DNA of 64,000 bases from Spirochaetia bacterium (GCA_965198005.1 CBDAOI010000004.1:480001-544000), one strand, 5' to 3'; positions 1,209 to 37,224 are shown, numbered from the stretch's first letter. The notes: generated from the sequence alone by a model not told the origin. Translations and numbers: made by a program.

Positions 1209-2752
<1,544 letters not shown>

Positions 2753-2917: not shown

Positions 2918-2991
2918 GGGGGTATAGCTCAGTTGGCTAGAGCGATGGCTTTGCAAGCCATAGGTCTGGGGTTCGAATCCCCATGCCTCCA
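2918..2991 (+). tRNA. tRNA-Ala (TGC) in the 16S-23S spacer; CCA not encoded
   Basis: Acceptor stem GGGGGTA/TGCCTCC with G3:U70, anticodon arm ATGGC-TTTGCAA-GCCAT, T-loop GTTCGAATC. Confidence 0.97.
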
Positions 2992-3261: not shown

Positions 3262-6293
<3,032 letters not shown>

Positions 6294-6454
6294 ATATTAC
6301 TCCGCACTTTCGGCGAATGGCCGAGAGTGCAAACAACTCAATCAATTGTAGGTGCGCTCCGCGCGCAGCTTTTCTTGGCCGTCCCGGCGCATGCCGGAAC
6401 GGCGGCGGTCGGCCCCCCGGGCCGGCGCCTGTTCCCTTATCTCCGCAAGATTTA

Positions 6455-6573
6455 TGTCTGGTGACCACAGCGGAGGGGCCCCACCCGTTCCCATTCCGAA
6501 CACGGCAGTTAAGCCCTCCTGCGCCGATGGTACTGCCCCGTGGTGGGGTGGGAGAGTAGGTCGTTGCCAGGCA
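6455..6573 (+). rRNA. rrf: 5S ribosomal RNA
   Basis: CCCATTCCGAACACGGCAGTTAAG...GCCGATGGTACT...GGGAGAGTAGG with terminal helix TGTCTGGTGAC/GTTGCCAGGCA. Confidence 0.98.
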
Positions 6574-6650
6574 TTTTTTTGTCGATGGCGCCCAGCCCCC
6601 ATTCCCCGGTTGACGTTGGGTTCCGGGCGGTAGTACACATTCGCGCAATC

Positions 6651-7727
6651 GTGACCGAACAACAAGCGGACTTCTCGGGCCTCGGGCAGCCGGTGGTCGA
6701 CTGCGACCTGCACAACACGGTTCCCAGCCTGCGGGCGCTGTATCCCTATCTGGAGGAGCACTGGGTCGCGTACTGCTCCGAGTCCGGCTTTGACGGTCCC
6801 GGCTCCAATGACTATCCCGGCGGAGCGACCAGCTCGGCCATCCCCGGCTCGAAACCGGATTCCGGCCCGCCCGGTTCCAATCTGGAATTGCTGCAGGCGC
6901 AGGTGCTGGACCCGTGGCAAGTGGAGGTGGGCATCCTCACCTGCAGCTACCAGGTACAGAGCCTGCACAACGAGGACTTGGCCGCGGCGTTGGCGACCGC
7001 GATCAACCAGTGGCAGATCGACGAATGGCTGGAGCGGGATCCGCGGCTGCGGGCGTCGCTGGTCGTGCCGAGCCAGCATCCGGCCCGCGCCGCCGAGGAG
7101 ATCGAGCGGTTCGGCGATCATCCGGGGTTCGTGCAGGTGATCGTGCCGGTGCGCTCCTACCTCCTGTATGGACGCCAGATCAGTGACCCGTTGCTGCAGG
7201 CTGCCACGCGCCACGACCTGCCGCTGGCGATCCACGCCGGCGGCGCCCCGGGCATCCCCCCGTCGGGGGCCGGCTGGCCATCCACCCACGTCGAGCAGTA
7301 CTCGCTGATGGCGCAGGTATTCCAGTCGCAGCTCGCAAGCTTGGTGATGGACGGCGCCTTTGCCCGCTTCCCGGACCTGCGCGTGGTCCTGGTCGAGAGC
7401 GGGTTCAACTGGCTGCCGGCCTGGATGTGGCGGCTCGACAAGGAGTGGAAAGGACTGCGGCGCGAGACGCCGTGGGTGAAGCGCCGCCCGTCGGACTACA
7501 TGCGCGACCACGTCCGGCTTACTCTGCAACCGCTGGACGCGCCGGCGGATCCCCGCCAGCTACTTGACGTAATCGGTCAGTTGGAGTCGGATGAGATGCT
7601 GATGTTCTCGACCGACTACCCGCATCGCCATTTCGACCGGCCCGAGGACGCCGTGCCGCGCGGGCTGTCGAGCGGACAGGAGAGCAGGATACTGCGCGAC
7701 AACGCGCGCGCGTTCTACCATCTTTAG
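6651..7727 (+). CDS. Amidohydrolase_2-fold protein, probable non-catalytic partner subunit
   Basis: DCDLH, HAGG, ESG and STDYPHRH motifs. Start moved to GTG 6651 because the track ORF overlaps the 5S gene. Confidence 0.85.
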   Translation: MTEQQADFSGLGQPVVDCDLHNTVPSLRALYPYLEEHWVAYCSESGFDGPGSNDYPGGATSSAIPGSKPDSGPPGSNLELLQAQVLDPWQVEVGILTCSYQVQSLHNEDLAAALATAINQWQIDEWLERDPRLRASLVVPSQHPARAAEEIERFGDHPGFVQVIVPVRSYLLYGRQISDPLLQAATRHDLPLAIHAGGAPGIPPSGAGWPSTHVEQYSLMAQVFQSQLASLVMDGAFARFPDLRVVLVESGFNWLPAWMWRLDKEWKGLRRETPWVKRRPSDYMRDHVRLTLQPLDAPADPRQLLDVIGQLESDEMLMFSTDYPHRHFDRPEDAVPRGLSSGQESRILRDNARAFYHL

Positions 7728-7748
7728 AGTATTTGCAGGAGAATCAGG

Positions 7749-8852
7749 ATGACGACCGCTACCCTTACCCGACCCGATGCCGAGGTCCGGCAACGCCGGA
7801 AGCTGGCGCTAATCGACTGCGACGTGCACAACTCGTGGCGGACGCCCAAGGATATCCTCCCGTACCTGCCGCGCAAGTGGCACGCCATGTACCAGGAGTG
7901 CGGGATGTTTACCCGCGCGGGGCTGGCCACGCCCCGCGCGGTGCCGTACGCGGCGCGCAAGGACTCCTGGGTCGGGGGCGGACTCCCCGGCTCCGACCTG
8001 GACGTGATGCGACGGCAGCTCCTTGACGAGTACGAGATCGAATTCGCTGTTCTGAACTGTCTCAACGCCGCCTACGGTAACCAGAATCTGGAGTTGATCG
8101 ACGCCGTGGGCAGCGCGCTCAACGACTGGCAGATAGCCGAGTGGCTGGAACCGGAACCGCGGCTGCGCGCGTCGCTGCTGATTCCCTGGGAGGATGCGGA
8201 CCTGTCGGTGGCCGAGATCGAACGGCTCGGAGATCATCCCGGCTACGTGCAGGTGATGATGGTGCCGCGCACGCTCGAACCGCTCGGCCGCCGCCGCTAC
8301 TGGAAGATCTACGCCGCGGCGCAGGAGTACCAGCTCCCGATCGGGCTCCACTTCGGGGGCCTGGGAGTCGGCCCGCTCACCGGCGGCGGCCAACCCTCGC
8401 ACTACATCGAGGACCACGCCGGCATGGCGCAGGCGTTTCAGGCCGCGGTGACCAGTCTGGTGTACGAGGGGGTGTTCGAGCGGTTCCCGGACCTCAAGGT
8501 GGCGCTGGTCGAGGGCGGCTTTGCCTGGCTGCCGCCGCTCATGTGGCGCCTCGACGCCTGCTACCGCCGGATGAGGGTGGAGTTGCCCCATCTGCGGCGG
8601 CTGCCTTCCGAGCAGATCCGCGAGCACGTCTATCTCAGCACGCAACCGATGGAGGAGCCGCCCCGTCCGGAGTATCTGGAACAGCTCCTCGAGCATATGG
8701 ATATGGACGGCAACATCATGTTCGCCACCGACTACCCGCACTGGGACTTCGACTCCCCCCGGCGGGCGATTCCGACCTCGCTCGACCCGGTGCTGCGCCG
8801 CAAGATCCTGGCCGACAACGCCCGCGCCCTGTATCGGTTGGGCGACTCGTAG
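7749..8852 (+). CDS. Amidohydrolase_2-fold protein, probable catalytic dinuclear-metal subunit
   Basis: DCDVH, LHFGG, IEDH, EGG and ATDYPHWD motifs; SD AGGAG upstream. Confidence 0.88.
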   Translation: MTTATLTRPDAEVRQRRKLALIDCDVHNSWRTPKDILPYLPRKWHAMYQECGMFTRAGLATPRAVPYAARKDSWVGGGLPGSDLDVMRRQLLDEYEIEFAVLNCLNAAYGNQNLELIDAVGSALNDWQIAEWLEPEPRLRASLLIPWEDADLSVAEIERLGDHPGYVQVMMVPRTLEPLGRRRYWKIYAAAQEYQLPIGLHFGGLGVGPLTGGGQPSHYIEDHAGMAQAFQAAVTSLVYEGVFERFPDLKVALVEGGFAWLPPLMWRLDACYRRMRVELPHLRRLPSEQIREHVYLSTQPMEEPPRPEYLEQLLEHMDMDGNIMFATDYPHWDFDSPRRAIPTSLDPVLRRKILADNARALYRLGDS

Positions 8853-8859
8853 GCGGGCG

Positions 8860-9315
8860 GTGGCCAGGCACGTAGTCGCCGCGGTCACGGAGATTCCGCC
8901 CGGCGAGCGCAAGCTGGTCGAGCTGGAAGGGCGCTCGGTGGGCGTGTTCAACGTCGTCGGCCAATTCTTCGCCCTGCGCAACCGCTGCCCGCATCAGGGC
9001 GGACCGCTGTGCGCAGGCGAGTTGACCGGCTTCACCGCGGCCGCGGCGCCGCGCGCCTACCGCTACGAACGCAAGGGCGAGATCCTGCGCTGCCCGTGGC
9101 ACAACTGGGAGTTCGACGTGAAGACCGGGCAGTCGTGGGTGGATCCGGCCAGGCTCAGGGTGCGCGCATACCCCGCACAGGTGGCACGTGGCGCGGACCT
9201 GCCGGCTGCCGGAGCGGCGGCGGGCGCGGTGGGCGGCCGGGAACAAGGTCCGTACACGGCCGAGACCTACCCTGCAACCGTGGAACAGGACTACGTGGTC
9301 GTGGATCTGGGGTAG
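8860..9315 (+). CDS. Rieske [2Fe-2S] ferredoxin
   Basis: CPH...CPWH Rieske ligands. Confidence 0.92.
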   Translation: MARHVVAAVTEIPPGERKLVELEGRSVGVFNVVGQFFALRNRCPHQGGPLCAGELTGFTAAAAPRAYRYERKGEILRCPWHNWEFDVKTGQSWVDPARLRVRAYPAQVARGADLPAAGAAAGAVGGREQGPYTAETYPATVEQDYVVVDLG

Positions 9316-9351
9316 GCTTGGTGTAGGTCGACGTTGAGGGAGGATAATGCG

Positions 9352-9867
9352 ATGACCATCGGTGAGAGTTTGCTGCCGGAGTTCGATCACGAAGCGGCCG
9401 GCGTGCGGAGGACGCTGGAACGGGTGCCGGGGGACCGGTTCGACTGGAAACCGCATCCCAGGTCGGGCTCGATGGTCTGGCTGGCGGCGCACCTCGCCAA
9501 CCTGCCCTCGTGGGCGGTGCTGACCATCAACCAGGATGCGCTCGACTTGGCGCCCGGCGGCAAGCCGCTCGATCCGGCGCCGCGGCCCGCCACCGTCGCC
9601 GAGCTGGTGGCGACGTTCGACCGCAACGCCGCCGCGGCGCGCGCGGCCATCGCCGGCGCCGGCGACGCCGACCTGCTGGCACTCTGGTCGTTGCTGCAGA
9701 CCGGGGTGACCGTGATGACCATGCCGAGGGTGGCGGTGCTGCGCAGCTTCGTCTTCAATCATCTCATTCATCACCGCGCCCAGCTCGGCGTCTATCTGCG
9801 GCTCAACGACATCCCCGTGCCGTCCCTCTACGGACCGTCGGCCGACGAGAGCCCGAGCCTGCCGTAG
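9352..9867 (+). CDS. DinB/YfiT family protein (S-transferase-like)
   Basis: WKPHPRS, LAAHLA and NHLIHHRAQLGVYLRL motifs; SD GGAGG. Confidence 0.88.
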   Translation: MTIGESLLPEFDHEAAGVRRTLERVPGDRFDWKPHPRSGSMVWLAAHLANLPSWAVLTINQDALDLAPGGKPLDPAPRPATVAELVATFDRNAAAARAAIAGAGDADLLALWSLLQTGVTVMTMPRVAVLRSFVFNHLIHHRAQLGVYLRLNDIPVPSLYGPSADESPSLP

Positions 9868-9882
9868 CCGAGCCGCCGCCCG

Positions 9883-10746
9883 ATGGAGGTCTCGGTCACC
9901 GAGGTGCGCAACATTCTCACGCGCACCGGCGGCTTTCTGCGGCGGGTAACCTCCCACTCGGTGCAGCCGTATCGCGGCTGCGCGTTCGGCAACGCGCTGT
10001 GTGGGGTGGGATGCTACGTCCGGCACCACGGGTTGGTGACGCGGCAGCGCCCGTGGGGGACGTTCCTTGAGGTGCGGCGGAACGCGGCGGCCTCCTACCT
10101 CGCGCAGGTGGAGCGGGAGCGGCGCTGGGCGCGCGGCGCGCGCGGCTGCTTCGGGATCTTCATGTCCAGCGTCACCGAGCCGTTTCTGCCCCAGGAGGCG
10201 CGGTACCGCGTCAGCCGCGAGCTGCTCGGCGCCATGCTCGAGGCCCCGCCGGACCTGCTGATTCTGCAGACCCACTCGCACCGGGTGACCGAATACCTCG
10301 ATCTTTACCGTGAGCTGCGGCGGCGCTGCCGGCTGCGGGTGCACGTCTCGATCGAGACCGACCTCGAGGACTTCCCGGGCCTGCCGCCCCACGCCTGCTC
10401 GGTCGAGCGCCGCTTTCAGGCCGCAGCGGCGCTCAAGCACGCCGGCATCCACACCGTGATCACGGTGGCGCCACTGCTGCCGATCGGCGCGCCGGAGGAG
10501 TTCTTCGCCCGCGTCGCCGCCTGCGCCGACGCCGTGGTGATCGACCATTTCATCCAGGGCGACGGCAGCGCCGACGGCAGCCGCACGCGCCGCACGGCGC
10601 TACCGCGCGCGATGGCGGCCGTGAATCCCGAGTCGGTGCGCCTCGCCTACCGCGAGCGCATGCTGGAGATCGCCGGCCGGCACCTGCCGGGCCGGGTCGG
10701 GCTCAACGTCGACGGCTTCGCCGGCCGCTACGCGGCCCTGCGGTAG
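9883..10746 (+). CDS. Radical SAM protein, spore-photoproduct-lyase-like/Rv2578c-like clade
   Basis: QPYRGCAFGNALCGVGCY, FMSSVTEPF, SIET and TVAPLLP motifs. Confidence 0.8.
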   Translation: MEVSVTEVRNILTRTGGFLRRVTSHSVQPYRGCAFGNALCGVGCYVRHHGLVTRQRPWGTFLEVRRNAAASYLAQVERERRWARGARGCFGIFMSSVTEPFLPQEARYRVSRELLGAMLEAPPDLLILQTHSHRVTEYLDLYRELRRRCRLRVHVSIETDLEDFPGLPPHACSVERRFQAAAALKHAGIHTVITVAPLLPIGAPEEFFARVAACADAVVIDHFIQGDGSADGSRTRRTALPRAMAAVNPESVRLAYRERMLEIAGRHLPGRVGLNVDGFAGRYAALR

Positions 10747-10765
10747 GCTGGCGTCGAAACGGGCC

Positions 10766-11674
10766 GTGAGCGCACCGCGGCGCATCCTCAGCACGGCGGC
10801 GAGCACCAATCAGGGGCCGTTCACCGCTGCCGACTGGGCCTTGTTCTGCGCCATCTCGCTGATCTGGGGCGCCTCGTTCCTGTTCATCGACGTCGGCCTG
10901 GAGGCGTTCCGGCCCGGCCTGATCACGTTCCTGCGGGCGGCCAGCGGCGCCGCGCTGCTGTGGCTGATCCCGGCCGCGCGGCGGCGGCCGCTGCAGCCCG
11001 CCGACCGGCCGCGCGTGGTGGTGCTGTCGTTGATCTGGGTGGCGGTGCCGTTCACTCTGTTTCCGCTGGCGCAGCAGTGGGTCAATTCGGCGCTCACGGG
11101 CATGCTCAACGGTGCGATGCCGATGTTCGCGGTGCTGATCGCGACCGCGCTGCTGCAGCGCCTGCCGCGGCCGGTGCAACTGGCCGGCTTGCTGATGGGC
11201 TTGCTTGGCGTCGTCGCCATCGCGCGCTCGTCGGCGGCGGCCGGAGGCAGCAGCGCCCTGGGCGTGGCGCTGATTCTCGGCGCCACCCTGTGTTACGGCG
11301 CCGCCGTGAACCTCGCCGTTCCACTGCAGCAGCGCTACGGCTCGCTGCCGGTGATGGCGCGCGTGCTCGGACTGGCAGCGTTGTGGACGGCGCCCTACGG
11401 CCTGATCGGACTGGCGCGCTCCGGTTTCGGTTGGCCGTCACTGCTCGCGGTGCTGGCCGCCGGCTTCCTGGGTACCGGCGCGGCCTACTGGATCATGGGC
11501 ACCCTGGTCGGCAGGGTCGGCTCGGTGCGCGCCTCGTTCATCACCTACCTGATCCCGGTGGTGGCGCTGCTGCTGGGCGTGCTGCTGCGCGGCGACCGGG
11601 TCGGCGAGCTGGCCGTCGCCGGCGTGGCCCTGGCCACCACCGGCGCCCTGCTGGCCTCCCGCCGCGACCGCTGA
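10766..11674 (+). CDS. DMT/EamA family transporter
   Basis: About 10 hydrophobic helices; IWGASF and YLIPVVA motifs. Confidence 0.9.
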   Translation: MSAPRRILSTAASTNQGPFTAADWALFCAISLIWGASFLFIDVGLEAFRPGLITFLRAASGAALLWLIPAARRRPLQPADRPRVVVLSLIWVAVPFTLFPLAQQWVNSALTGMLNGAMPMFAVLIATALLQRLPRPVQLAGLLMGLLGVVAIARSSAAAGGSSALGVALILGATLCYGAAVNLAVPLQQRYGSLPVMARVLGLAALWTAPYGLIGLARSGFGWPSLLAVLAAGFLGTGAAYWIMGTLVGRVGSVRASFITYLIPVVALLLGVLLRGDRVGELAVAGVALATTGALLASRRDR

Positions 11675-11702
11675 CGGAACGGAGTACGCCACGGAGGCGC
11701 GG

Positions 11703-12389
11703 TCAGCGGCGGCCGAGGGCGAAGGGGCTGAAGCGGGTGTCGCGGTCGTAGTGGTCGGCGTGCTCGGTGCGTTTGAGGAAGCGGACCGCGAGGTAGGTGA
11801 GGGGCGTGGCCGCCGCCTCGTAAAGCACCTTCACCGCCCACTGCGACAGCACGGCGGTGAGCATCACGTCGCCGGGAATCACTCCCGCGAAGGCGACGGT
11901 AACGAACACCGCCGAATCGAGCCCCTGGCCGAATATGGTAGAAGTGATGGTGCGCAGCCACAGGTGGCGGCCGGCGGTGCTGAGTTTGAGCTTGGCCAGT
12001 ACGAACGCGTTGAGGAACTCGCCGCCCAGGTAGGCCAGGAACGACGCCGCCAGCAGCCGTGCGGAGAATCCCAGGATCGCGTCGTACGCCGCCTGTCCGT
12101 CCCAGAAGGGCGCGGCCGGGATCAGCCCGCCGAGCGCGATGGCGGCCACCGCCAGCAGGTTGCACAGGAAGCCGATCCAGATCACCCGGCGCGCGGTGGC
12201 GTAGCCGTACACCTCGGTCAGTACGTCGGCGACGATGTAGGACAGGGGAAACAGGATCACCGCCGCCGGCAGCACCAGCGGCCCGGCCGTGACCAGCTTC
12301 ACCGCGATGATGTTCGACACGATCAGCGCGGTCACGAACAGCCCGGTGACCAGCGGCAGCCAGCGGGTCCCGGGCGGCGCGCCGCTCAC
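11703..12389 (-). CDS. yhhQ: Queuosine precursor transporter (Vut_1/DUF165)
   Basis: SNIIAVK, FPLSYIVADVLTEVYG and STIFGQGLDS motifs; GTGA overlap with the queF stop. Confidence 0.9.
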   Translation of the reverse strand: MSGAPPGTRWLPLVTGLFVTALIVSNIIAVKLVTAGPLVLPAAVILFPLSYIVADVLTEVYGYATARRVIWIGFLCNLLAVAAIALGGLIPAAPFWDGQAAYDAILGFSARLLAASFLAYLGGEFLNAFVLAKLKLSTAGRHLWLRTITSTIFGQGLDSAVFVTVAFAGVIPGDVMLTAVLSQWAVKVLYEAAATPLTYLAVRFLKRTEHADHYDRDTRFSPFALGRR

Positions 12390-18917: not shown

Positions 18918-21039
18918 CTGCCTGAGCCGTGGCTGTCCGAGCCGTGCGCGCCGCGGGAACCGCCTCGCCGCGCTGGTGGCGACGGCCGCCCTGGCGGCTG
19001 CGGCGGTGGGCTGGGGACAGGAAGGCGGCACCGCCACTGACGCCGCCGGCGGACAGAGCGGCTTCGCCGCCGGCGAGCTGCGCGTGGCCGACTTGGCGCC
19101 GCTGCAGCGGGTCGTGGTGGTGGAGGGGGGGCGGCCGATGCCGCTCGACAGCTTCGCCCGGATTACCCTGCTGCGGCTCTCCGGCCGGTCCAGCTTCGCG
19201 CGCCGGCCGGCGATCGAATGGTTCGCGCGGGTGCTGTTCACTCCCAACGAAACCCACGACGATGGCGTGTTCCTGGTCGACAACCCGGAGGTGATCGACG
19301 CCATGGGGCTGGTGTCCCGCGGCCGCGACCGCTACGGCCTGGCGTTTCTGCTCGACGGACTGCCGGAGCTGGAGCGGCTGGCCGAGGACGCCGGCGCCAT
19401 CAGCGAAGACAACCGCACCGTGGTGGAGCGTGAGATTCTGCGCCTGTGGAACAACGTCGGGGCCTACGCCAACCTGCTCTCGACGTTCGCCTTCACCTAT
19501 CCCCATGCCGACTTCCAGGTGGCGGACGCCGCGGCCGCCGCGCTGCTGGAGCTGCCGGGGCCCGGCACCTACAGCTACCTCGACATTGCCTTGCGCGAGG
19601 ACCGGCTGCGGTCCGCCGTCACCGAGGCGGGCCGGGCGCACGCGGCGAGTGGCGCCTTCTCCCGGACCGACGGCCTGCTGCTGCGGCTGGGGCAGAGCCT
19701 GGCGACCTGGCGCGCCAACTTCGACGGGCTGCCCCTGCCGATCATTCCGGTCACCGTGCCGGGCGGGGGCGGGACCCAGTGGCTCACCCCCTGGCAGGCG
19801 CTCGGCGGCGAATTCGTGGGCGGGCTCGGCCGCGACCAGCGCAGCGCGATCGATCGCGAGCTGCTGGCGTTGCGCGACCTGCAGGTAGCCTACCTGGAAG
19901 GCCGCCCGGTGCACTTCGCGCTCGCAGCGCGGCAGTTCAGCGATTCGGTCCAGCAGCGCACCGCGGCCACCCTGGAATTGCAGGACCCGCGGCTGGAGGT
20001 GCTGTACAACGGGATCAACCCTTACAACATCGCCAAGCTGACCTACGGCGCCGGGTTGTTGACGCTCGCGCTCTCGTTCCTGGGTTTTCGGACCTGGCTG
20101 TACCGCCTCAGCCTGGTGCTCCTGGTGGCCGGCTTCGTGCCGCATACCCTCGGTCTGGTGCTGCGCATGCTGATCACCGCGCGCCCGCCGGTAACCAACC
20201 TGTACGAGACGTTCACGTTCGTCGGGTGGGGGTCGGTGGTGTGCGGGATGGTAATGGAGCGCCTGCGCAAGCGCCCGCTGGGCCTGTTCTGCGGGTTGGC
20301 GGGCGGGTTCGTGTTCTTTCTGCTCTCGGCGAAGTTCTCGGCCGAGGGGGACACCATGCCGGTGCTGCAGGCGGTGCTGGACACCAACTTCTGGCTCTCC
20401 ACGCACGTGCTGGTGATCACCACCGGCTACATGACCTGCTGCGTGGCGGGCCTGATCGGCCACGTGTACCTGCTGCAGGCGGTGCTGCCCGGCAGCGGGG
20501 CCGGGACGCGGCGGGCGGAGCGGCTGGCGCGCACCTACCGCACGCTGTTCGGCACGCTGGCCGTTGGGCTGATCTTCTCGTTCGTGGGCACCATGCTCGG
20601 GGGTATCTGGGCTGATCAATCCTGGGGCCGTTTCTGGGGCTGGGACCCGAAGGAGAACGGCGCGCTCATGATCGTCCTGTGGTGCGCGCTTCTGTTCCAC
20701 GCCCGCATGGGCAAGATGATCGGGCCGTTCGGGATGGCGGCGGGCGCGGCGCTGCTGATCATCGTGGTGATGATGGCCTGGTTCGGGATCAACCTGCTGG
20801 GGGTCGGGCTGCACTCCTACGGCTTTACCGAGGGGGTGTTCTGGGGGTTGATGGCTTACATCGCGGCCGAGATCGCGTTCGTGGCGGCGATCGCCGCCTG
20901 GCACCGGAAGCAGCGCCGGCGCGGGTCCTCGGATGCGCCGCCGCCACCGCCGGCAATGGCCGCCGATCCCCCGCCCGCGCCGGGCAGCAACGGTGTCCCG
21001 GCCGCAATCGCGCAATCGCGCAGCCGGGCGGCGCGGTAA
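18910..21039 (+). CDS. ccsA: CcsA/ResC cytochrome c synthase with a large N-terminal periplasmic domain
   Basis: RPPVTNLYET, WLSTHV, WADQSWGRFWGWDPKE (WWD domain) and GLHSYG motifs. Confidence 0.93.
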   Translation: MGSCLSRGCPSRARRGNRLAALVATAALAAAAVGWGQEGGTATDAAGGQSGFAAGELRVADLAPLQRVVVVEGGRPMPLDSFARITLLRLSGRSSFARRPAIEWFARVLFTPNETHDDGVFLVDNPEVIDAMGLVSRGRDRYGLAFLLDGLPELERLAEDAGAISEDNRTVVEREILRLWNNVGAYANLLSTFAFTYPHADFQVADAAAAALLELPGPGTYSYLDIALREDRLRSAVTEAGRAHAASGAFSRTDGLLLRLGQSLATWRANFDGLPLPIIPVTVPGGGGTQWLTPWQALGGEFVGGLGRDQRSAIDRELLALRDLQVAYLEGRPVHFALAARQFSDSVQQRTAATLELQDPRLEVLYNGINPYNIAKLTYGAGLLTLALSFLGFRTWLYRLSLVLLVAGFVPHTLGLVLRMLITARPPVTNLYETFTFVGWGSVVCGMVMERLRKRPLGLFCGLAGGFVFFLLSAKFSAEGDTMPVLQAVLDTNFWLSTHVLVITTGYMTCCVAGLIGHVYLLQAVLPGSGAGTRRAERLARTYRTLFGTLAVGLIFSFVGTMLGGIWADQSWGRFWGWDPKENGALMIVLWCALLFHARMGKMIGPFGMAAGAALLIIVVMMAWFGINLLGVGLHSYGFTEGVFWGLMAYIAAEIAFVAAIAAWHRKQRRRGSSDAPPPPPAMAADPPPAPGSNGVPAAIAQSRSRAAR

Positions 21040-21102
21040 ACTCGCAATCCCGAGCGATCCGGTTAGCCAACCGGCCACCTATCGCTTATTCTTTGAACAG
21101 AG

Positions 21103-21936
21103 ATGGCTTCGGCGGCGGGCACCATGACCTTCCTCGAGCATGCGGCCGAGCTGCGGCGGCGGCTGATCACGTCGCTGGTTGCGGTCATCGCGTGCGCGGT
21201 GGTGTGCTACGTGTTCTACGAGCAGGTGCTGGTGGTGCTGCTGCGGCCGCTGCAGTCGCTGCCCGAGACGTTGGGCGGCGGTGCGGGCGCTGCCGGGGTC
21301 GCTGCCGGCGGAACCGGGGCTGCCGCCGGCGGCGCGGGTGCGGCCGGCGCCGGCGCGGTGGAAGCGCCCCCCGAGTACCTGTTCGTCAACAGCCTGTTCG
21401 AGGGGTTTCTGGTGCGCGTGAAGGTGGCGCTGCTCGCGGGGGCGGTGGTGTCGCTGCCGGTGCACCTCTACAACGTGGTACGGTTCGTGTTTCCGGGCCT
21501 GATGCGGCGGGAACGGCGGGCGGTGACGGTCGCCCTGGCTGCGTCGACCGTGCTGCTGCTGGGCGGTTTCTTTTACGGTTACTACAACGTGATTCCGCTC
21601 TCGGTGCGCTTTCTGGTCAGCGCCGGGTTCATTCCGGACGGGGTCGGCGTGCTGCTCAACTATCAGCGCACGGTGTCCGCGGTGTTCCAGTTCGTGCTGG
21701 TGTTCTCGCTGGTGTTCCAGTTGCCGATCGTGCTGGTGGTGCTGATGATGACCGGCGTGGTGAGCCGGCGCACGCTGCTGCGGGCCAGCCGCTACGTGGT
21801 GGTGGCGATCTTCGCCCTGGCGGCGGTCGTGACCCCGCCGGACGTGGTTTCGCAGGTGAGTATTGCGGTACCAATGATAGGGATGTTCTTTCTATCGATT
21901 CTGGTCGCCAGGCTGCTGGGCTTCGGGGCTGAGTGA
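21103..21936 (+). CDS. tatC: Twin-arginine translocase subunit TatC
   Basis: MTFLEHAAELRRRL, FVFPGL, FQLP and AAVVTPPD motifs. Confidence 0.93.
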   Translation: MASAAGTMTFLEHAAELRRRLITSLVAVIACAVVCYVFYEQVLVVLLRPLQSLPETLGGGAGAAGVAAGGTGAAAGGAGAAGAGAVEAPPEYLFVNSLFEGFLVRVKVALLAGAVVSLPVHLYNVVRFVFPGLMRRERRAVTVALAASTVLLLGGFFYGYYNVIPLSVRFLVSAGFIPDGVGVLLNYQRTVSAVFQFVLVFSLVFQLPIVLVVLMMTGVVSRRTLLRASRYVVVAIFALAAVVTPPDVVSQVSIAVPMIGMFFLSILVARLLGFGAE

Positions 21937-22193
21937 TGTTCGGTCTCGGCATCTGGGAGATTGCCCTGCTCTGTGTCGCGGTGCTGGTGTTCGTGCGGCC
22001 GGACGAGTTGCCCAAGGTGATGCGCACGCTGGGGTCGTTCTACGGCCGGGTAACCGGCACGTCCCGGCACCTCATGCGCCAGATTCAGCAGCCGGTCGAA
22101 TTGGACGATGATGACGATGATGATGACGACCGGCATAGTATTGCCGCCGACCGGACGCGCGACGGCGGCGGCAGGGAGGAGTTGAAACGATGA
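21936..22193 (+). CDS. tatB: TatB-like subunit
   Basis: MFGLGIWEI...PDELPKVMRTLG followed by an acidic tail. Confidence 0.8.
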   Translation: MFGLGIWEIALLCVAVLVFVRPDELPKVMRTLGSFYGRVTGTSRHLMRQIQQPVELDDDDDDDDDRHSIAADRTRDGGGREELKR

Positions 22194-22402
22194 TACCAGG
22201 CGGCGCGGAGTGGATCATAATCGGAGGTGTGGTACTGGTGCTGTTCGGGGCGTCGGCGATCCCGCGGTTCGCCCGTTCCATCGGCCGCGCCAAGCGCGAG
22301 TTCGAGAAGGGCCAGCGCGACGCCACCCGCGACGCGGCTGACTCCCGGCCCCCGGACGACACCGGCGAAGCTCGGCCGGCCCCCCCGCGCGACGACGACT
22401 GA
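22190..22402 (+). CDS. tatA: TatA subunit
   Basis: GGAEWIII...LFGASAIPRFARSIGRAKREFEKG. Confidence 0.88.
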   Translation: MIPGGAEWIIIGGVVLVLFGASAIPRFARSIGRAKREFEKGQRDATRDAADSRPPDDTGEARPAPPRDDD

Positions 22403-22538
22403 CGCGTAGGATGTCGGCTCGCCTGCTCGGAGCCCGCACTCTGGAGGGATTCGCCGGGCGCGTAGATTCCCGCGCGCAGCGCCTGGTGGCCGCGGGGCCG
22501 CTGCCGGTCGCGTAAGATTGCGCTGCTCAGAAGACTTG

Positions 22539-23918
22539 ATGGAACACTCATACGACGCGATTATCATCGGCACCGGCCAGGCCGGGCCCAGTCTTGCCGC
22601 GGAGCTGTCCGCGGCCGGCATGCGCACCGCGATCATCGAGCGCCACCGCTTCGGGGGCACCTGCGTCAACGTGGGCTGCATTCCCACCAAGGCGCTGGTG
22701 GCCAGTGCCCGCGCCGCCCACGTCGCCCGCCGCGCCGCCGACTTCGGGGTGGTGATCGGAGGTGACGTCGGCGTCGACATGGCGCGGGTGAAGGCGCGCA
22801 AGGACGCCATCGTGCGGCGCTCCGCCACCGGCGTGGAACGGTGGCTGAAGTCGCTGGCCGACTGCACCGTGTGCCGGGGCCACGCGCGGTTCGCGGGCGA
22901 CCACCGGGTGCGGGTGGGCGACGAGGTGCTGGAGGCACCGCGGATCTTCATCAACGTGGGCGCGCGCGCCTTCGTGCCGCCGTTTGCGGGCGTCGAGGAG
23001 GTGGACTATCTGACCAACTCCACGATCATGGAGCTCGCCACCCTGCCGCAGCATCTGGTGATCGTCGGCGGCGGCTACATCGGGCTGGAGTTCGCGCAGA
23101 TGTTCCGCCGCTTCGGCAGCGAGGTGACGCTGATCGACCGCGGCGACCGGCTGATCAAGCGCGAGTCGGCGGACGTCTCGGCGGCGGTGGCGGCGATCCT
23201 GGAAGGCGAGGGGGTCCGGCTCCGGCTGGACGCCGAATGCCTCGGCTTCGAACGCCGGGGGGAGGGAGTGGCGGCCACCCTGGAGTGCCGTGACCAGGAG
23301 CCGGAGGTGGTCGGGTCGCACCTGCTGCTGGCGGTGGGGCGCCGTCCCAACACCGACGACCTGGGGCTGGAGACGACCGGCATCGAGGTGGATTCCCGCG
23401 GCCACGTCCGGGTGGACGACGCCCTGCAGACCGGCGTGCCGGGGGTGTGGGCGCTCGGCGAGTGCAACGGCCGCGGCGCCTTCACGCACACCGCCTACAA
23501 CGACTACGAGATCGTCGCCGGCAACCTGCTGCACGACGACCCGCGGCGGGTGACCGACCGCATCGACTGCTACGCGCTGTACGTCGATCCGCCGCTCGGC
23601 CGCGTCGGCATGACCGAGCCCCAGGTGCGCGCATCGGGACGCCCGGCCCTGGTCGCCACGCGGCCCATGACCCGCGTCGGCCGCGCCGTGGAGAAGAGCG
23701 AGACCCAGGGCTTCATGCAAGTGCTGGTCGACGCGGAGACCGAACGCATCCTCGGCGCCGCCATTCTCGGCGTCGGCGGCGACGAGATCATCCACTCGAT
23801 CCTCGACGTGATGTACGCCGGCGCCCCGTACACCGTGATCCGCCGCGCGGTGCACATCCACCCCACCGTCGCCGAGCTGATCCCCACCATGCTCGCCGAC
23901 CTCAAGCCGCTGGAGTAA
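22539..23918 (+). CDS. FAD-dependent pyridine nucleotide-disulfide oxidoreductase (MerA-like family, no C-terminal Cys pair)
   Basis: GTGQAG, GGTCVNVGCIP, GGGYIGLE and HIHPTVAE motifs. Confidence 0.92.
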   Translation: MEHSYDAIIIGTGQAGPSLAAELSAAGMRTAIIERHRFGGTCVNVGCIPTKALVASARAAHVARRAADFGVVIGGDVGVDMARVKARKDAIVRRSATGVERWLKSLADCTVCRGHARFAGDHRVRVGDEVLEAPRIFINVGARAFVPPFAGVEEVDYLTNSTIMELATLPQHLVIVGGGYIGLEFAQMFRRFGSEVTLIDRGDRLIKRESADVSAAVAAILEGEGVRLRLDAECLGFERRGEGVAATLECRDQEPEVVGSHLLLAVGRRPNTDDLGLETTGIEVDSRGHVRVDDALQTGVPGVWALGECNGRGAFTHTAYNDYEIVAGNLLHDDPRRVTDRIDCYALYVDPPLGRVGMTEPQVRASGRPALVATRPMTRVGRAVEKSETQGFMQVLVDAETERILGAAILGVGGDEIIHSILDVMYAGAPYTVIRRAVHIHPTVAELIPTMLADLKPLE

Positions 23919-24481
23919 TCCTCAAGCTCAAGCTTCGTACCAGCGTGCGAGGCGACACCTGTCCATTCCCGTCCCGCAGGTGATCGAGCACGTCGTTTCC
24001 GGCCAGGATAGGCTGTTCGATCAGGTAGTCGACGACGCCACACGGCGCGGTAGCGCCATCGTGCGCCGTCAACAGGAACCCCACTCCCGGAGCGTCGAGA
24101 TCGACATCGAGGACCACAACCCGCTCACCGGCGGCAGCCAGATGCAGGGCCGTGGCGGCCAGCGCCGTTGACCTCCCTATTCGTGCCGACGATGGCAACG
24201 CCTTGTTTCCATGCCTCTTCCTGCCATTCGCCGTCGGGAGTTTCGTTCCGGCCAGAACCGCGAAGCACGTCACGAGACCAATAGGCGGACGCTCCACCCC
24301 GGAGACCTTGATCGATCTCTGCGCTTGCCGCCCCCCAATTGGATTTCGGGCACCATAGTATGACCCGGAGTCGGGCAAACAGGTCCTTGATCAACAGGAT
24401 GCGCCATGATCGTGGCTTGTCTGACAGGAATTCCCTGAGGATGGCCTCTGCACGATCGTGAGCGTCGTCGGCATGGAGCAT
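23902..24481 (-). pseudogene. Remnant of a ParA/MinD-like (KGGVGR-type) ATPase
   Basis: The N-terminus (KDLFARLRVILW) is in one frame and GRSTALAATALHLA..GERVVVLDVDLDAPG..GVVDYL in another. Walker A is cut and the C-terminus is missing. Confidence 0.7.
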
Positions 24482-24546
24482 CAAACAACTCCGTCGAGGA
24501 TCAGACCACCGACAATTCCGGAAACCCTGCTGGCCGACCTCTATGG

Positions 24547-25806
24547 TCACCGCGGGCCCAGGCGCCGGCGGACGGCGTCCAGGACGTGGTGGGCGGTTTG
24601 TTCCTTGGGCATGAGCGGCAGGCGGACCGTGGGAGTGTCGGGCGCGATCAGCAGGACCTCGTTCCGGTCCGAGCCGAACACGGTTTCGCCGGCGCCGGTG
24701 GTGACCGGGTTGCCGACGATCAGGTCGGCGCCCTTGGCCGCGAGCTTGGCGCGGGCGTGCTGCTCCAACTGCTCGGTCTCGGCGGCGAACGCGACGATCA
24801 CCCGTGGCCGGGCGCTGCCGGCGGCGGCCGCGCCGGCAACGATGTCCGCGGTCCGTTGCAGGCGCAGATGGTGCTCGTTCCCGGAGCGGGACTTCTTGAT
24901 CTTCTGCGGGGCGACCGCCGCCGGCCGGTAGTCGGCCACCGCCGCCGCCATCAGCAGCACGTCGGTGGTCTCTAGGTGGGCGGTGACCGCGGCCTGCATC
25001 TCGGCCGCCGACTCCACCGTTTCGACGCGCATGCCGGCGGCGTCGACCGGGGCCTCGGCGGTGGTGATCAGGGTAACCTGGGCGCCGCGGTCGCGGGCGG
25101 CGCGCGCCAGCGCCACCCCCATCTTGCCGCTGGAACGGTTGCCCAGCACGCGCACCGGGTCGAGCGGCTCACGGGTGCCGCCGGCGGTGATCAGGCAGCC
25201 GCGCCCGGCCAGATCGCAGCCGCGGCCGAGCAGCAGGCGGACGTGTCCCACCAGCTCCGCCGGCTCCAGCATGCGGCCGGCGCCGCCGGCCCCCGACGCG
25301 TGGCGCCCGGTCGCCGGGCCCGCGATCGCCGCGCCGTCGCCCCGGAGCAGCGCCAGGTTGCGCTGCGTCGCCGGATGCCGCCACATCTCCGCTTCCATGG
25401 CGGGGGCCAGCAGCAGCGGCGCGCGGCTGGACAGCGCCGTCAGGCTGAGCAGGTCGTCGGCCATGCCGTGCGCCAGCCGGGCCAGGGTATGGGCGCTGGC
25501 GGGGGCGACCACGATCAGGTCGGCGCGGCGCGCCAGCTCGAGGTGCGGGATGCGGCCGGTGGCGCCGGCCAGCGGCGCGAACATGTCGGTGCACACCGCC
25601 CCGGGGGTGAGGGCGGTGAAGGTGGCCGCGCTGACGAAGCGCGCGCCGGCGGCGGTCAGCACCACGTCGACCCGGGCGCCGTGCTGGATGAGGGCGCTGA
25701 CCAGCACCGCCGCCTTGTAGGCCGCGATGCTGCCGGTCACCCCCACCAGCAGGTGCGCGCCCGGCAGCGCGCCGCGCCGGTCCGGCGCCGCGCCCGCGGC
25801 GCTCAT
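24547..25806 (-). CDS. coaBC: Bifunctional phosphopantothenoylcysteine decarboxylase/synthase
   Basis: GVTGSIAAYKA, TAGGTREPLDPVR..NRSSGKMG, AAVADYRP and FAAET motifs. Confidence 0.95.
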   Translation of the reverse strand: MSAAGAAPDRRGALPGAHLLVGVTGSIAAYKAAVLVSALIQHGARVDVVLTAAGARFVSAATFTALTPGAVCTDMFAPLAGATGRIPHLELARRADLIVVAPASAHTLARLAHGMADDLLSLTALSSRAPLLLAPAMEAEMWRHPATQRNLALLRGDGAAIAGPATGRHASGAGGAGRMLEPAELVGHVRLLLGRGCDLAGRGCLITAGGTREPLDPVRVLGNRSSGKMGVALARAARDRGAQVTLITTAEAPVDAAGMRVETVESAAEMQAAVTAHLETTDVLLMAAAVADYRPAAVAPQKIKKSRSGNEHHLRLQRTADIVAGAAAAGSARPRVIVAFAAETEQLEQHARAKLAAKGADLIVGNPVTTGAGETVFGSDRNEVLLIAPDTPTVRLPLMPKEQTAHHVLDAVRRRLGPR

Positions 25807-26579
25807 GGCCGCTCCGGCTGGTTGAGCCGGTACACGATCTGCAGCCCCTTGAGCGTGAGCCACGGATCCACCTGCTCCACCACGCCGGTCTGGGCCGCGA
25901 TGACGTCGGCCAGGCCGCCGGTGCCGATCACCCGCATGCCGGGACCGAGTTCGGCGCGGAAGCGCGCCACCATCCCCTCGATCAGCGCCACGTAGCCGAA
26001 CACCAGTCCCGATTGCATGGCGTGCACGGTGTTGCTGCCGATGCTGCTCGGCGGCGGCCGCAACTCCACGTCCGGCAGCTTGGCGGCGTGGCCGACCAGC
26101 GCCTGCAGCGCCAGCTCCAGGCCGGGGGCGATCGCCCCACCGACGTACTCGCCGGCGGCGTTGATCGCATCGAACGTGGTGCCGGTACCGAAGTCGATGA
26201 TGCAGGCCGGCGTGCCGTAGTAGTGGCGCACCGCGGCGGCGTTGACGACGCGGTCGGCGCCCACGTCGCGCGGGCTGTCGTAGCGCACCTTGATGCCGGT
26301 CTTGACGCCCGCGTCCACCACCAGCGGCGAACAGCCGAAGGTGTCCTGCGCCAAGCGCGCGAAGGCCGCGGTGAGCGGCGGCACCACGCTCGCCAGGGCG
26401 ACGCCGGTGACCGCCGCCGGCGCCAGCCCGGCCGCGGCGAACAGGCCGGCGACCAGCACCCCGTACTCGTCGGCGGTGGCGTTGGTGCGCGTCTGGATCC
26501 GCCAGCTCGCCCGCAGCCGGGCGCCGTCGAACACACCCAGCACCACGTTGGTATTGCCGACGTCGATGCCCAGCAACAT
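25803..26579 (-). CDS. coaX: Type III pantothenate kinase
   Basis: IDVGNTN, VGADR, DFGTGTT and GGAIAPG motifs. Confidence 0.95.
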   Translation of the reverse strand: MLLGIDVGNTNVVLGVFDGARLRASWRIQTRTNATADEYGVLVAGLFAAAGLAPAAVTGVALASVVPPLTAAFARLAQDTFGCSPLVVDAGVKTGIKVRYDSPRDVGADRVVNAAAVRHYYGTPACIIDFGTGTTFDAINAAGEYVGGAIAPGLELALQALVGHAAKLPDVELRPPPSSIGSNTVHAMQSGLVFGYVALIEGMVARFRAELGPGMRVIGTGGLADVIAAQTGVVEQVDPWLTLKGLQIVYRLNQPERP

Positions 26580-27448
26580 CAGTGGCTCTCCGTGCCGGTC
26601 TCGAGGTCGTCCGGCAGCGTCACGCTGTCGATCAGGCGCACGCCGCCGATGCGGGCGGCCAGCGACAGCAGCGCGCGGTCACCGTCCGCGGCAGCCGGTC
26701 CCAGCTCGCACAGCGTGTCCGCGTCGGCCAGACTGAGGTATTCCAGCTCCACCCCGGCGGCGGCGATCGGGGCGCGCGTGCAATCCAGCAGGGCCGCGCG
26801 GCCCCGTTCGCCCCGGCGCCAGGCGTCCAGCGCCGCCGTCAGCCCCCGGTACAGCACCGGCGCGCGCGCGCGGGCGGCGGCGGTCAGCAGCTCGTTGCGC
26901 GAGCTGAGCGCGACGCCGTCGGCCGCCCGTACGGTCCGGCAGCCGACGACGGTTGCCGGCAGGTTGAGATCCGCGTTCAACCGCCGCACCAGCGCCAACT
27001 GTTGCGGATCCTTGCGCCCGAAGTAGGCGAGCTGCGGCTGAAACAGCACCAGCAGCTTGGCGACCACGGTGGCCACCCCGTCGAAGTGGTCGGTGCGCGC
27101 CCGCCCTTCCGGGGAGCGCTCCATTCCGCGCACCGTGACGAAGGTGCGGAAGCCGGATGGATACACCTCGCCGGCGGTCGGCGTCCACGCCAGATCGACC
27201 CCGAGCCGCGCCGCCAGGGTCAGGTCGTGCTCCGGAGCGCGCGGATAGGCGGCGAGGTCGGCGTCGTCGTTGAACTGGGCCGGGTTGACGAAGATGGTCA
27301 GCACCGTGTGGTCGCACTCCGCGGTGCTGCGCCGGATCAGCGCCTCGTGCCCGGCGTGCAGGGCGCCCATGGTCGGCACCAAGCCGACGCTGCCGGCCAT
27401 CTGCGCGCGGGCCGCGCGGGCTGCGGCGACCGTATGTACGACCCGCAC
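26579..27448 (-). CDS. panC: Pantoate--beta-alanine ligase
   Basis: VPTMGALHAGH, FVNPAQF, FGRKDPQQ, ALSSRN and RLIDS motifs; start GTG 27448 with a GAGG SD. Confidence 0.95.
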   Translation of the reverse strand: MRVVHTVAAARAARAQMAGSVGLVPTMGALHAGHEALIRRSTAECDHTVLTIFVNPAQFNDDADLAAYPRAPEHDLTLAARLGVDLAWTPTAGEVYPSGFRTFVTVRGMERSPEGRARTDHFDGVATVVAKLLVLFQPQLAYFGRKDPQQLALVRRLNADLNLPATVVGCRTVRAADGVALSSRNELLTAAARARAPVLYRGLTAALDAWRRGERGRAALLDCTRAPIAAAGVELEYLSLADADTLCELGPAAADGDRALLSLAARIGGVRLIDSVTLPDDLETGTESH

Positions 27449-27449
27449 G

Positions 27450-28436
27450 TCAGTGGTCCTCGTCCCCGGCTCGGGTCGCGGCCACCGGCTGCGCGGTCGC
27501 GGGGTGGGTGCGGCGCGCATTCACCGGGCCGCCGGCCACCGCAGCCGGGTCGGCACCCACCGGGTCCCCGTGCAGCGGCGGGGCGGTTCCGTCCAGCCGG
27601 CTGCGGAAGGCGGCCAGCTCGCGCCGGTCCATCAGGTAGGAGTGCTCGCGGTCGGGAAACGTGCCGCCGCGCACTTCGGCGCAGAACCGTTCCAGCGCGC
27701 CCCGGATCTGCTGCCCGACGTCGGCGTAGCGCTTGACGAACCGGGGCGAGCGGCCGGTGTTCATGCCGATCACTTCATGGAAGATCAGAACCTGGCCGTC
27801 GCACCCGGCGCCGGCGCCGATGCCGATGGTGGGCACCGGCACTCGGCGGGTCACCTCCGCCGCGACCTTGCGCGGCACCGCCTCGATCACGATCGCGAAG
27901 CAGCCGGCGGCGGCCAGCGCCGCGGCGTCGCCGACCAGCCGGGCGGCGGCGGCCGCGGTGCGGCCCTGCACCAGATGACCGCCGATCAGGTGCTCCGACT
28001 GCGGCACCAGGCCGACGTGCCCCATCACCGGGATGCCGGCCGCCACGATGGCGGCAACCGTGGCGGCGCGCGCCGCACCGCCCTCCAGCTTGACCGCCTC
28101 GCAGCCGCCTTCCTTGATCATGCGCACGGCGTTGGCCACGGCGCCCGCCCGGTCGACCTGATAGGAGCCGAACGGCAGATCGCCCACCACCAGCGCCGCC
28201 GGCCGCGCGCGCCGCACCGCCCGGCAGTGGTGGAGCATCTCTTCCATCGAGACCGGCACCGTGCTGGAGTAGCCCAGCATGAACTCGCCGAGTGAATCGC
28301 CGACCAGGATCAGATCGACCCCGGCGGCATCCACCAGGCACGCACTGGTGTAGTCGTAAGCGGCGATCATGGTCAGGCGCGGAGCCGCGCCCGCGCGCTT
28401 GGTGATCTGCTGGATCGTGACCTTCTCACGTGTCAC
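27450..28436 (-). CDS. panB: 3-methyl-2-oxobutanoate hydroxymethyltransferase
   Basis: AYDY, LVGDSLG, VKLEGG, GHVGL and IGIGAG..CDGQVL motifs; start GTG 28436 with a GGAGG SD. Confidence 0.95.
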   Translation of the reverse strand: MTREKVTIQQITKRAGAAPRLTMIAAYDYTSACLVDAAGVDLILVGDSLGEFMLGYSSTVPVSMEEMLHHCRAVRRARPAALVVGDLPFGSYQVDRAGAVANAVRMIKEGGCEAVKLEGGAARAATVAAIVAAGIPVMGHVGLVPQSEHLIGGHLVQGRTAAAAARLVGDAAALAAAGCFAIVIEAVPRKVAAEVTRRVPVPTIGIGAGAGCDGQVLIFHEVIGMNTGRSPRFVKRYADVGQQIRGALERFCAEVRGGTFPDREHSYLMDRRELAAFRSRLDGTAPPLHGDPVGADPAAVAGGPVNARRTHPATAQPVAATRAGDEDH

Positions 28437-37222: not shown

Positions 37223-37224
37223 GA

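Follow-up and report, generated by a model that had tools for sequence, protein, structure and literature searches.

Three consecutive genes on a 64,000-nucleotide (nt) stretch of DNA from a Spirochaetia bacterium (GCA_965198005.1, CBDAOI010000004.1:480001-544000), here called the window and numbered from its first letter, quite probably code for a two-subunit, Rieske-coupled member of the amidohydrolase-related dinuclear oxygenases (AROs), of the AibH1H2 type. A predicted helper subunit (gene 1) and a predicted catalytic subunit (gene 2) are followed by a small Rieske ferredoxin (gene 3; Table 1), and open reading frame (ORF) listing and translation place 21 nt (7728-7748) between genes 1 and 2 and 7 nt (8853-8859) between genes 2 and 3. 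Both larger proteins matched the Pfam profile Amidohydro_2 (PF04909) over positions 1-289 of 289, with E-values of 4.8e-39 for gene 1 and 3e-42 for gene 2, and gene 3 matched the Rieske profile (PF00355) at 1.6e-15; a search of genes 1 and 2 against NCBIfam returned no model that names either protein. A first-pass annotation of this DNA had described a tandem Amidohydro_2 pair with a Rieske gene at these spacings, likened the layout to Rhodococcus AibH1H2/AibG, and proposed a candidate dinuclear-metal C-H oxygenase rather than a hydrolase. The ORF calls and Pfam matches bear out the arrangement, the matches to both Rhodococcus subunits given below agree with the comparison, and homology, motifs and trees support the proposed chemistry at the level of sequence. 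The enzyme class was already published between 2021 and 2026, and the locus is an uncharacterised member of it and not a new class.

The predicted catalytic subunit

The AROs have been defined by three features, namely the PF04909 fold, an N-terminal D-x-H motif, and a C-terminal D-x-P-H-x-[D/E] motif at least about 200 residues later, and approximately 17,000 proteins were counted as ARO on this basis by Liu et al. in 2026 (PMC13154177). All three features are found in gene 2, which carries D23-C-D25-V-H27, H201, E221-D222-H223, E255, and D328-Y-P-H331-W-D333. When gene 2 was searched against the PDB, the best solved chains were AibH2 (6m1w_B, 5.2e-85), 8sm7_A (1.9e-84), and SfbO (8sm6_A, 2.1e-71), followed at a distance by AibH1 (5.7e-50), PtmU3 (8.4e-22), and DitZ (5e-14), while the best match to a decarboxylase was gamma-resorcylate decarboxylase at 5.3e-11. 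Residues D25, H27, H201, E255, D328, H331, and D333 align to D25, H27, H211, E265, D337, H340, and D342 of AibH2, for which six metal ligands and a second-sphere Asp342 are reported (PMC7782822; PMC12141560). Gene 2 thus retains all six ligands and the Asp342 equivalent, with a predicted site 1 made of D25, H27, H201, E255, and the bridging D328, and a predicted site 2 in which H331 is the ligand and D333 the second-sphere acid. Each of the six ligand positions is unchanged in all 97 H2-like sequences aligned. An alignment to AibH1 and AibH2 was the check that the first-pass annotation had proposed for the metal ligands, and on that check the second-site ligands are kept in gene 2.

All of the motifs named in that annotation are present. 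The E-D-H among them is not a set of metal ligands, as E221-D222-H223 aligns with E230-M231-R232 of SfbO, in which R232 is reported to bind the active-site sulfate (PMC10811679); this triad is therefore better taken as a mark of the substrate pocket. The pocket of gene 2 also has R63, D222, and M226 where AibH2 has Gln, Tyr, and His, and the substrate is accordingly presumed to be something other than 2-aminoisobutyrate (Aib).

The likely metal class was assigned using secondary-sphere positions g1 to g5. In the published rule, Mn-dependent low-potential AROs have a hydrophobic g1, a hydrophilic g2, and an aromatic g4 (PMC13154177, Table 1). Gene 2 has V26 (g1), N103 (g2), A326 (g3), W332 (g4), and F334 (g5), in agreement with the rule; g2 was located through an alignment made here to the Thr of SfbO 'AILTG' and not through the paper's own numbering, and this column is Asn in 92 of 97 H2-like sequences. 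The g5 position is reported to stack on the ferredoxin, and Rieske neighbours are described as typical of low-potential AROs and uncommon beside diiron ones (PMC13154177). Based on the g1/g2/g4 rule and this neighbour pattern, gene 2 is predicted to be a Rieske-coupled, low-potential ARO with Mn/Fe (or Mn2) and not a PtmU3-like Fe2 enzyme. The relation to PtmU3 that the first-pass annotation had drawn is remote, and gene 2 would belong to the low-potential Rieske-coupled branch instead of that of PtmU3.

The predicted helper subunit and its clade

Gene 1 carries E215-Q216-Y217 and D322-Y-P-H325-R-H327, and its best solved chains were 8sm7_A (1.7e-78), AibH1 (6m1w_A, 6.6e-75), and AibH2 (9.9e-66). 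Its D19, H21, H195, E249, and D322 align to D24, H26, H201, E255, and D328 of AibH1, a subunit with five reported metal ligands (PMC7782822), and H325 is also kept. His327 sits at the position of AibH2 D342, and the motif DYPHRH of gene 1 corresponds to DYPHKH in AibH1. From these alignments, gene 1 appears to have a complete one-metal site with the second-site acid replaced by His, as in AibH1. A division into one catalytic and one non-catalytic subunit, which the first-pass annotation gave for the Rhodococcus enzyme, agrees with the full ligand set in gene 2 and with His327 in gene 1. The D-x-H motif is present in gene 1 (D19-L-H21), and the C-terminal D-x-P-H-x-[D/E] motif is not; with His327 in place of the acid, gene 1 falls outside the AROs by the published filter and was filed as an AibH1-like helper.

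This pattern extends to the relatives of gene 1. Among 37 H1-like sequences, the ligand positions (gene 2 numbering) are kept as D in 36, H27 in 35, H201 in 31, E255 in 37, D328 in 37, and H331 in 37, and column 333 is His in 32, Gln in 4, and Asn in 1. The clade also has a conserved E-E/Q-Y motif of its own. Asp or Glu is missing from the last motif position in all 120 of the top-ranked database relatives found for gene 1, and a helper clade whose members do not have the final acid would have been missed by the published motif census. In AibH1, an interface lysine is reported to hydrogen-bond D342 of AibH2 (PMC12141560). The aligned residue of gene 1, Lys264, is Lys in 37 of 37 H1-like sequences, and the commonest residues of this column in the 97 H2-like sequences are Arg (66), Lys (8), Ala (7), and Gln (5). 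Gene 1 has Leu269 in place of the Tyr that serves as aromatic stacking partner in AibH1.

Clade structure and co-inheritance

A FastTree phylogeny was built from 136 sequences, comprising 119 cluster members of at least 300 amino acids (8 shorter ORFs were excluded), the two window proteins, 14 added sequences from kin, the same genome, and plasmids, and as outgroup a non-ARO PF04909 protein encoded elsewhere in the window (Table 1). Of the 38 proteins that lack the final acid, 37 fell into a single clade with a support of 99, the exception being a Poribacteria sequence in the H2 clade with an aberrant motif match. In an IQ-TREE analysis under a mixture model of 50 sequences hand-picked from the 136, all 21 acid-less sequences, including the AibH1 proxy, were separated from the others by a single branch (SH-aLRT 94). 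The proxy (L091_6850) is the helper encoded on a Rhodococcus pseudokoreensis plasmid, and on the strength of its 2.3e-197 match to AibH1 (6m1w_A), the pair from this plasmid was used as a stand-in for AibH1 and AibH2. Genes 1 and 2 are 38% and 40% identical to their respective proxies, which the IQ-TREE analysis places on branches distant from the two. The sister of gene 1 is L001_1607, followed by proteins from Latescibacterota (L067/L069), and gene 2 groups with the catalytic genes of locus L001 and of Latescibacterota. Across 21 pairs, the pairwise distances of H1-like and H2-like proteins were correlated (Mantel r 0.87), with none of 2000 permutations as high. As genes of one genome share their history, this congruence points to co-inheritance and not to contact.

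Gene order among relatives

Relatives of gene 2 were collected by a scan of species-representative genomes, which resulted in 360 stretches; the best 79 were kept, and together with the window these give the 80 loci counted below. Most of the 79 are metagenome-assembled genomes (MAGs) of Poribacteria, and the others are from Chloroflexota/Caldilineaceae, Thermomicrobiota, Latescibacterota, Acidobacteriota, Dormiibacterota, and one genome labelled Pseudomonadales. Among the kept loci, gene 2 is best matched, at 63% identity, in a MAG labelled 'bacterium'. Both an H1-like and an H2-like gene were found in 37 of 80 loci, a Rieske gene directly behind the H2-like gene in 19, and the strict order H1-H2-Rieske in 12, these being MAGs of Chloroflexota, Thermomicrobiota, Acidobacteriota, and Dormiibacterota, two 'bacterium' MAGs, and the window. 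The same trio occurs on two plasmids. In Roseomonas gilardii it comes after genes for a sugar ABC transporter and a trehalase-family protein, and in Rhodococcus pseudokoreensis it is followed by a PDR/VanB reductase.

Several other arrangements were observed. One Chloroflexota contig (loci L045/L046) carries the trio twice, in opposite orientation and approximately 1 kb apart (19570-34661, reversed, and 35808-50899), with equal identity to gene 2. In 35 of the Poribacteria loci (within L002-L061), the H2-like gene is followed by a gene for a PhyH-family dioxygenase on the opposite strand, and the H1-like gene of Poribacteria adjoins PALP and GMC-oxidoreductase genes. The genes spaced between H1 and H2 in this phylum are variable and of defence type, including PIN, AbiU2-like HEPN, and a D12 methylase with an EcoRI-like nuclease (restriction-modification). 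The genome under study has a second ARO cluster (C4:2223003-2227551; locus L092, 5998-10732, minus strand) with the order ARO (DFPHFD), Rieske (133 amino acids), a 180-amino-acid ORF without a Pfam match, H1-like (DFPHRH), and ARO (DYPHWD).

The Rieske ferredoxin and a model of the complex

Gene 3 has the cluster-binding motifs C43-P-H45 and C78-P-W-H81, and C43, H45, C78, W80, H81, W83, and E84 are invariant in all 20 sequences of its alignment (A3). Its match to the biphenyl dioxygenase ferredoxin 2e4p_A was 2.3e-9. An insert of approximately 15 residues between the motifs (about 55-70) is absent from classical ferredoxins and is common to the Rhodococcus AibG-like, Roseomonas, and other aligned ARO-linked Rieske proteins. 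The C-terminal part of gene 3, as in the ARO-linked Rieske proteins of A3, consists of a variable Ala/Gly-rich linker and then a conserved tail. The tail motif G-P-Y-x-A-E-T-Y-x-V-x-V ... Y-V-V-V-E-I echoes the strand motif 'Y-P-x-x-V' that precedes the linker.

Genes 1, 2, and 3 were modelled together as one heterodimer with the ferredoxin, using alignments of our own, and the Rieske chain was scored. The score was 0.84, against 0.00 for the best of three controls, and the ferredoxin scored 0.00 when gene 2 was replaced. The mark reached is one attained by 116 of 157 solved complexes and by 2 of 215 mismatched pairs, a comparison that is only rough for a job with three chains and our own alignments. 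The model runs share at least 96% of their contacts, and the partner predicted local distance difference test (pLDDT) value is at least 78. In the model, Rieske residues 45-49 and 79-84, the loops of the ligands H45 and H81, rest on residues 332-336 (W332, D333, F334) and 70-72 of gene 2, and the Rieske insert (58-67) rests on residues 267-275 of gene 1, beside the invariant Lys264. The PDB matches of genes 2 and 3 include no solved ARO-Rieske complex. The H1-H2 part resembles the solved 6M1W/8FUL structures, and a similar g5 contact has been published from an AlphaFold3 prediction of SfbO and its ferredoxin (PMC13154177); for both reasons, we take the model's pass as a sign of family likeness and not of binding.

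Proposed system and alternative explanations

The following scheme is proposed for genes 1 to 3. Gene 2 would hold two metals within its TIM barrel, one at D25/H27/H201/E255/D328 and the other at D328/H331 with waters held by D333, and its secondary-sphere residues would place it in the low-potential class, with Mn/Fe or Mn2 in place of Fe2. The ferredoxin, reduced by a protein that would be encoded elsewhere in the genome, would bring the resting M(III)M(III) cofactor to its reduced state by single-electron deliveries, after which the cofactor could take up O2 and hydroxylate a small polar substrate at an unactivated C-H bond. Gene 1 would be a degenerate paralogue with a single buried structural metal that, by analogy, pairs with gene 2 in an alpha2alpha'2 tetramer, a pairing that the invariant Lys264 and the congruent trees support indirectly, and judging from the model it may contribute part of the ferredoxin docking surface. 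A bolder and decidedly tentative extension of the modelled contacts is that the degenerate AibH1-like helper provides half of the Rieske landing site and so serves as an electron-transfer adaptor rather than as a mere scaffold.

A number of observations weigh against this scheme. A profile of the H1-like clade scored 8sm7 (351 bits), 8sm9 (342), and SfbO (341) above AibH1 (321) and AibH2 (299), so the tie of gene 1 to AibH1 consists of the tree and one residue class and not of overall similarity; the H2-like profile of the catalytic clade, for comparison, scored AibH2 110 bits above AibH1. The predicted metal class depends on a three-residue rule from one paper, with g2 placed by the alignment made here. 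The model represents one heterodimer and not the tetramer, in a job unlike those on which the tool was calibrated, and the modelled ferredoxin interface is not more conserved than other residues. Conservation at the interface was 0.63 against 0.60 elsewhere in alignment A1 (1984 of 5000 random sets were as high), 0.67 against 0.57 in A2 (861 of 5000), and 0.60 against 0.61 in A3 (2815 of 5000). No H1-like gene was present in the fetched stretch of 43 of the 80 loci, several of which are on short contigs, and in Poribacteria the H1 and H2 genes lie kilobases apart and mostly without a nearby Rieske gene. As the pairing is not universal, the heteromer may not be obligate in this orthologous group.

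The electron source is a further point. The first-pass annotation had remarked that no reductase gene is adjacent, and a scan of the six genes as far as 11674 and of 28 others in the window likewise turned up none; the operon has no dedicated ferredoxin:NAD+ reductase of the AibF/PDR type. In the whole genome (a 4.9 Mb assembly, 90% complete), the sole protein with Fer2, FAD_binding_6, and NAD_binding_1 domains is NqrF, which is encoded inside an nqr operon, and a search for the ferredoxin-reductase C-domain (PF14759) gave no match. Nor did 69 scanned flanking ORFs from 14 related loci include a reductase of these types. The nqr operon is a complete nqrA-F set for a Na+-translocating NADH:quinone oxidoreductase (C2:343488-349459; locus L095). 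The surroundings likewise give no substrate, since the neighbours change from locus to locus: among 33 cluster representatives and 69 of 129 flanking ORFs of 14 loci, neither a reductase nor a consistent pathway was seen, and the neighbours include PhyH dioxygenase, M81 peptidase, creatininase, PALP, GFO/IDH/MocA oxidoreductases, sugar-phosphate isomerase-like barrels, and assorted transporters.

Some of these observations would be expected if gene 2 were a self-sufficient homomeric ARO, comparable to the alpha4 enzyme SfbO, and gene 1 a separate one-metal enzyme such as a hydrolase or decarboxylase that takes the hydroxylated product as its substrate. Four Rieske-coupled AROs, SfbO among them, are reported to function or crystallise without a helper (PMC10811679; PMC13154177), homomeric AROs outscore AibH1 with the H1-like profile, and the H1-like clade retains a full one-metal site along with its E-E/Q-Y motif; the interposed genes in Poribacteria and the loci without an H1-like gene point the same way. 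We nevertheless consider this arrangement unlikely, as AibH1, from the same clade, is described as an indispensable subunit that is bound tightly and whose metal site is occluded (PMC7782822; PMC10401708), genes 1 and 2 are just 21 nt apart, the H1 and H2 trees are congruent, and the interface lysine is invariant. It also weighs against this alternative that in the model the ferredoxin score was lost when gene 2 was swapped out, while residues of gene 1 form part of the scored interface.

Two other explanations were weighed against the proposed two-subunit oxygenase, and both are judged very improbable. The pair could be ordinary one-metal, non-redox PF04909 hydrolases or decarboxylases with an unrelated Rieske gene as neighbour, in keeping with genes 1 and 2 matching only the general Amidohydro_2 Pfam family and no NCBIfam model, and with public records that call their relatives 'amidohydrolase'. 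Characterised decarboxylases, however, match 60-70 orders of magnitude more weakly than AROs, the D-x-H and D-x-P-H-x-D motifs are reported to be absent in every characterised hydrolase or decarboxylase of the fold (PMC13154177), and a Rieske gene follows the H2-like gene directly in 19 of 80 loci and on the two plasmids. Clustering with ordinary decarboxylases that have no Rieske neighbours, which the first-pass annotation had named as a sign against an oxygenase, was not seen; the ARO matches are far better and Rieske neighbours recur. As for an AibH1H2 orthologue that hydroxylates Aib itself, the subunit pattern and Rieske partner are the same and AibH2 is the top single-sequence PDB match of gene 2, but genes 1 and 2 share no more than 38% and 40% identity with the proxies, which are on distant branches, the pocket has R63/D222/M226 against Gln/Tyr/His in AibH2, and the aib pathway genes that PMC7782822 lists are absent from the vicinity of the locus. 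That list comprises a 3-hydroxyisobutyrate-type dehydrogenase, an aldehyde dehydrogenase, an SHMT-like decarboxylase, an alanine dehydrogenase, an amino-acid permease, and the PDR-type reductase AibF (PMC7782822).

Genomic setting and origin

The features of the window are collected in Table 1. Gene 1 may start at GTG 6651, which agrees with the N-terminal length of the family consensus, or at an in-frame ATG at 6585, which gives the 380-amino-acid form found as a protein-database entry; the longest ORF, from 6540, runs into the 5S rRNA. From the end of the 5S gene to gene 1 is 79 nt if counted to the GTG and 13 nt if counted to the ATG, and a run of seven T lies at 6574-6580, directly after the 5S gene. 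A promoter and terminator scan of 6300-11900 gave no sigma-70-like site and no terminator-like hairpin between 5S and gene 1, and transcription of gene 1 by read-through from the rRNA operon is possible. The G+C content is approximately 56% across the rRNA and 67-73% in the remaining window. As to the lineage, the single named protein close to the PanB of the window (73% identity) carries the label 'Spirochaetaceae bacterium', and the spirochaete flagellar sheath family PF04620 gave no match here, nor in any control genome.

Table 1. Features of the window, with positions counted from its first letter (aa, amino acids).
Feature	Position	Strand	Description
16S rRNA	1209-2752		Part of a complete rRNA operon at the beginning of the window
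tRNA	2918-2991		In the rRNA operon
23S rRNA	3262-6295		In the rRNA operon
5S rRNA	6457-6572		In the rRNA operon
Gene 1	6651-7727	+	Predicted AibH1-like helper subunit (alpha'); GTG start, 358 aa; amidohydrolase-2 TIM barrel
Gene 2	7749-8852	+	Predicted catalytic ARO subunit (alpha, AibH2-like); 367 aa
Gene 3	8860-9315	+	Small Rieske [2Fe-2S] ferredoxin (AibG/SfbR-like); GTG start, 151 aa
DinB_2 protein	9334-9867	+	18 nt past gene 3
Radical-SAM-like protein	9883-10746	+	Gap of 15 nt; below Pfam cut-off
EamA transporter	10766-11674	+	Gap of 19 nt
Further PF04909 gene	32757-33653		298 aa, 3.5e-25; without ARO motifs; tree outgroup

The DinB_2, radical-SAM-like, and EamA genes may also form part of the oxygenase operon. 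For the radical-SAM-like protein, the top NCBIfam models ('mobile pair protein B' and the PA0069 and Rv2578c types) scored far short of the cut-off, and the further genes scanned in the window are housekeeping genes. Orthologues of the radical-SAM gene with 72-79% identity occur in 8 of 10 same-genus genomes. At five same-genus loci, nine other window proteins and the rRNA pieces were absent within 14 kb of it; as only the radical-SAM gene was found there, synteny among kin is uninformative on the limits of the operon. No orthologue of gene 2 was found in same-genus genomes, and its best match among 30 related genomes, at 48% identity, is in another ARO clade; its nearest relatives come from MAGs of Poribacteria, Chloroflexota, and Latescibacterota. 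Acquisition of the trio by transfer would fit these distributions.

Significance

The AROs are a recently recognised route to the hydroxylation of unactivated C-H bonds, in some cases with manganese. Very few have a known substrate, and AibH1H2 is the only two-subunit member that has been studied. The locus adds a two-subunit case with a clean and compact layout, from a lineage of high G+C content that is probably spirochaete, together with a helper subunit that belongs to a large, coherent clade outside the published motif filter and a testable proposal for the role of the helper, which the AibH1H2 papers leave open. The family itself, the 'guilt by association' rule for Rieske neighbours, and the metal-prediction rule are all already in print. 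If the adaptor proposal were true, heteromeric AROs would rely on an inactive paralogue as their adaptor for electron transfer, and the helper clade, represented here by MAGs of eight named phyla and two plasmids, would be a large family invisible to the published census.

Comparison with known systems

The closest parallel is the Aib monooxygenase AibH1H2/AibG/AibF of Rhodococcus wratislaviensis C31-06 (PDB 6M1W, 6M2I, and 8FUL-8FUO; PMC7782822, PMC10401708). Shared with it are the order helper, catalytic subunit, Rieske protein and the six ligands with second-sphere Asp of the catalytic subunit, and gene 1 resembles AibH1 in its five aligned ligands, in the replacement of Asp by His, in falling into the same clade as the proxy, and in keeping the interface lysine. 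Unlike the Rhodococcus system, no AibF-type (PDR/VanB) reductase was found adjacent to the locus or in the genome, identity to the proxies is 38-40%, the surroundings contain neither aib catabolic genes nor an amino-acid permease, and the AibH1 Tyr is Leu269.

The second point of reference is the group of SfbO/SfbR and other Rieske-associated low-potential AROs (PDB 8SM6-8SM9, 9BU9, and 9BUA; PMC10811679, PMC13154177). Gene 2 shares with them the motifs and the pattern of secondary-sphere residues (g1 hydrophobic, g2 hydrophilic, g3 small, g4 Trp, g5 aromatic), as well as an adjacent Rieske ferredoxin without an operon reductase, and the modelled g4/g5 contact with the ferredoxin resembles the AlphaFold3 model. 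The members of this group are homomeric, whereas a degenerate paralogue adjoins gene 2, and the sulfate-binding N67, R232, and R235 of SfbO align to R63, H223, and M226. The high-potential diiron enzymes PtmU3 and DitZ (PDB 6OMP-6OMR and 8UYR) have the same fold and ligand framework as gene 2 and differ from it in the remoteness of the match, a hydrophilic g1, an aromatic g2, and the usual lack of a Rieske partner, and PtmU3 also has a direct Glu ligand at site 2. The PF04909 decarboxylases and hydrolases, such as gamma-resorcylate decarboxylase, LigW, ACMSD, and LigI/LigJ, share the amidohydrolase-2 TIM barrel; they have a non-redox site with one metal or none, are without D-x-H and D-x-P-H-x-[D/E], and match at 1e-11 or weaker.

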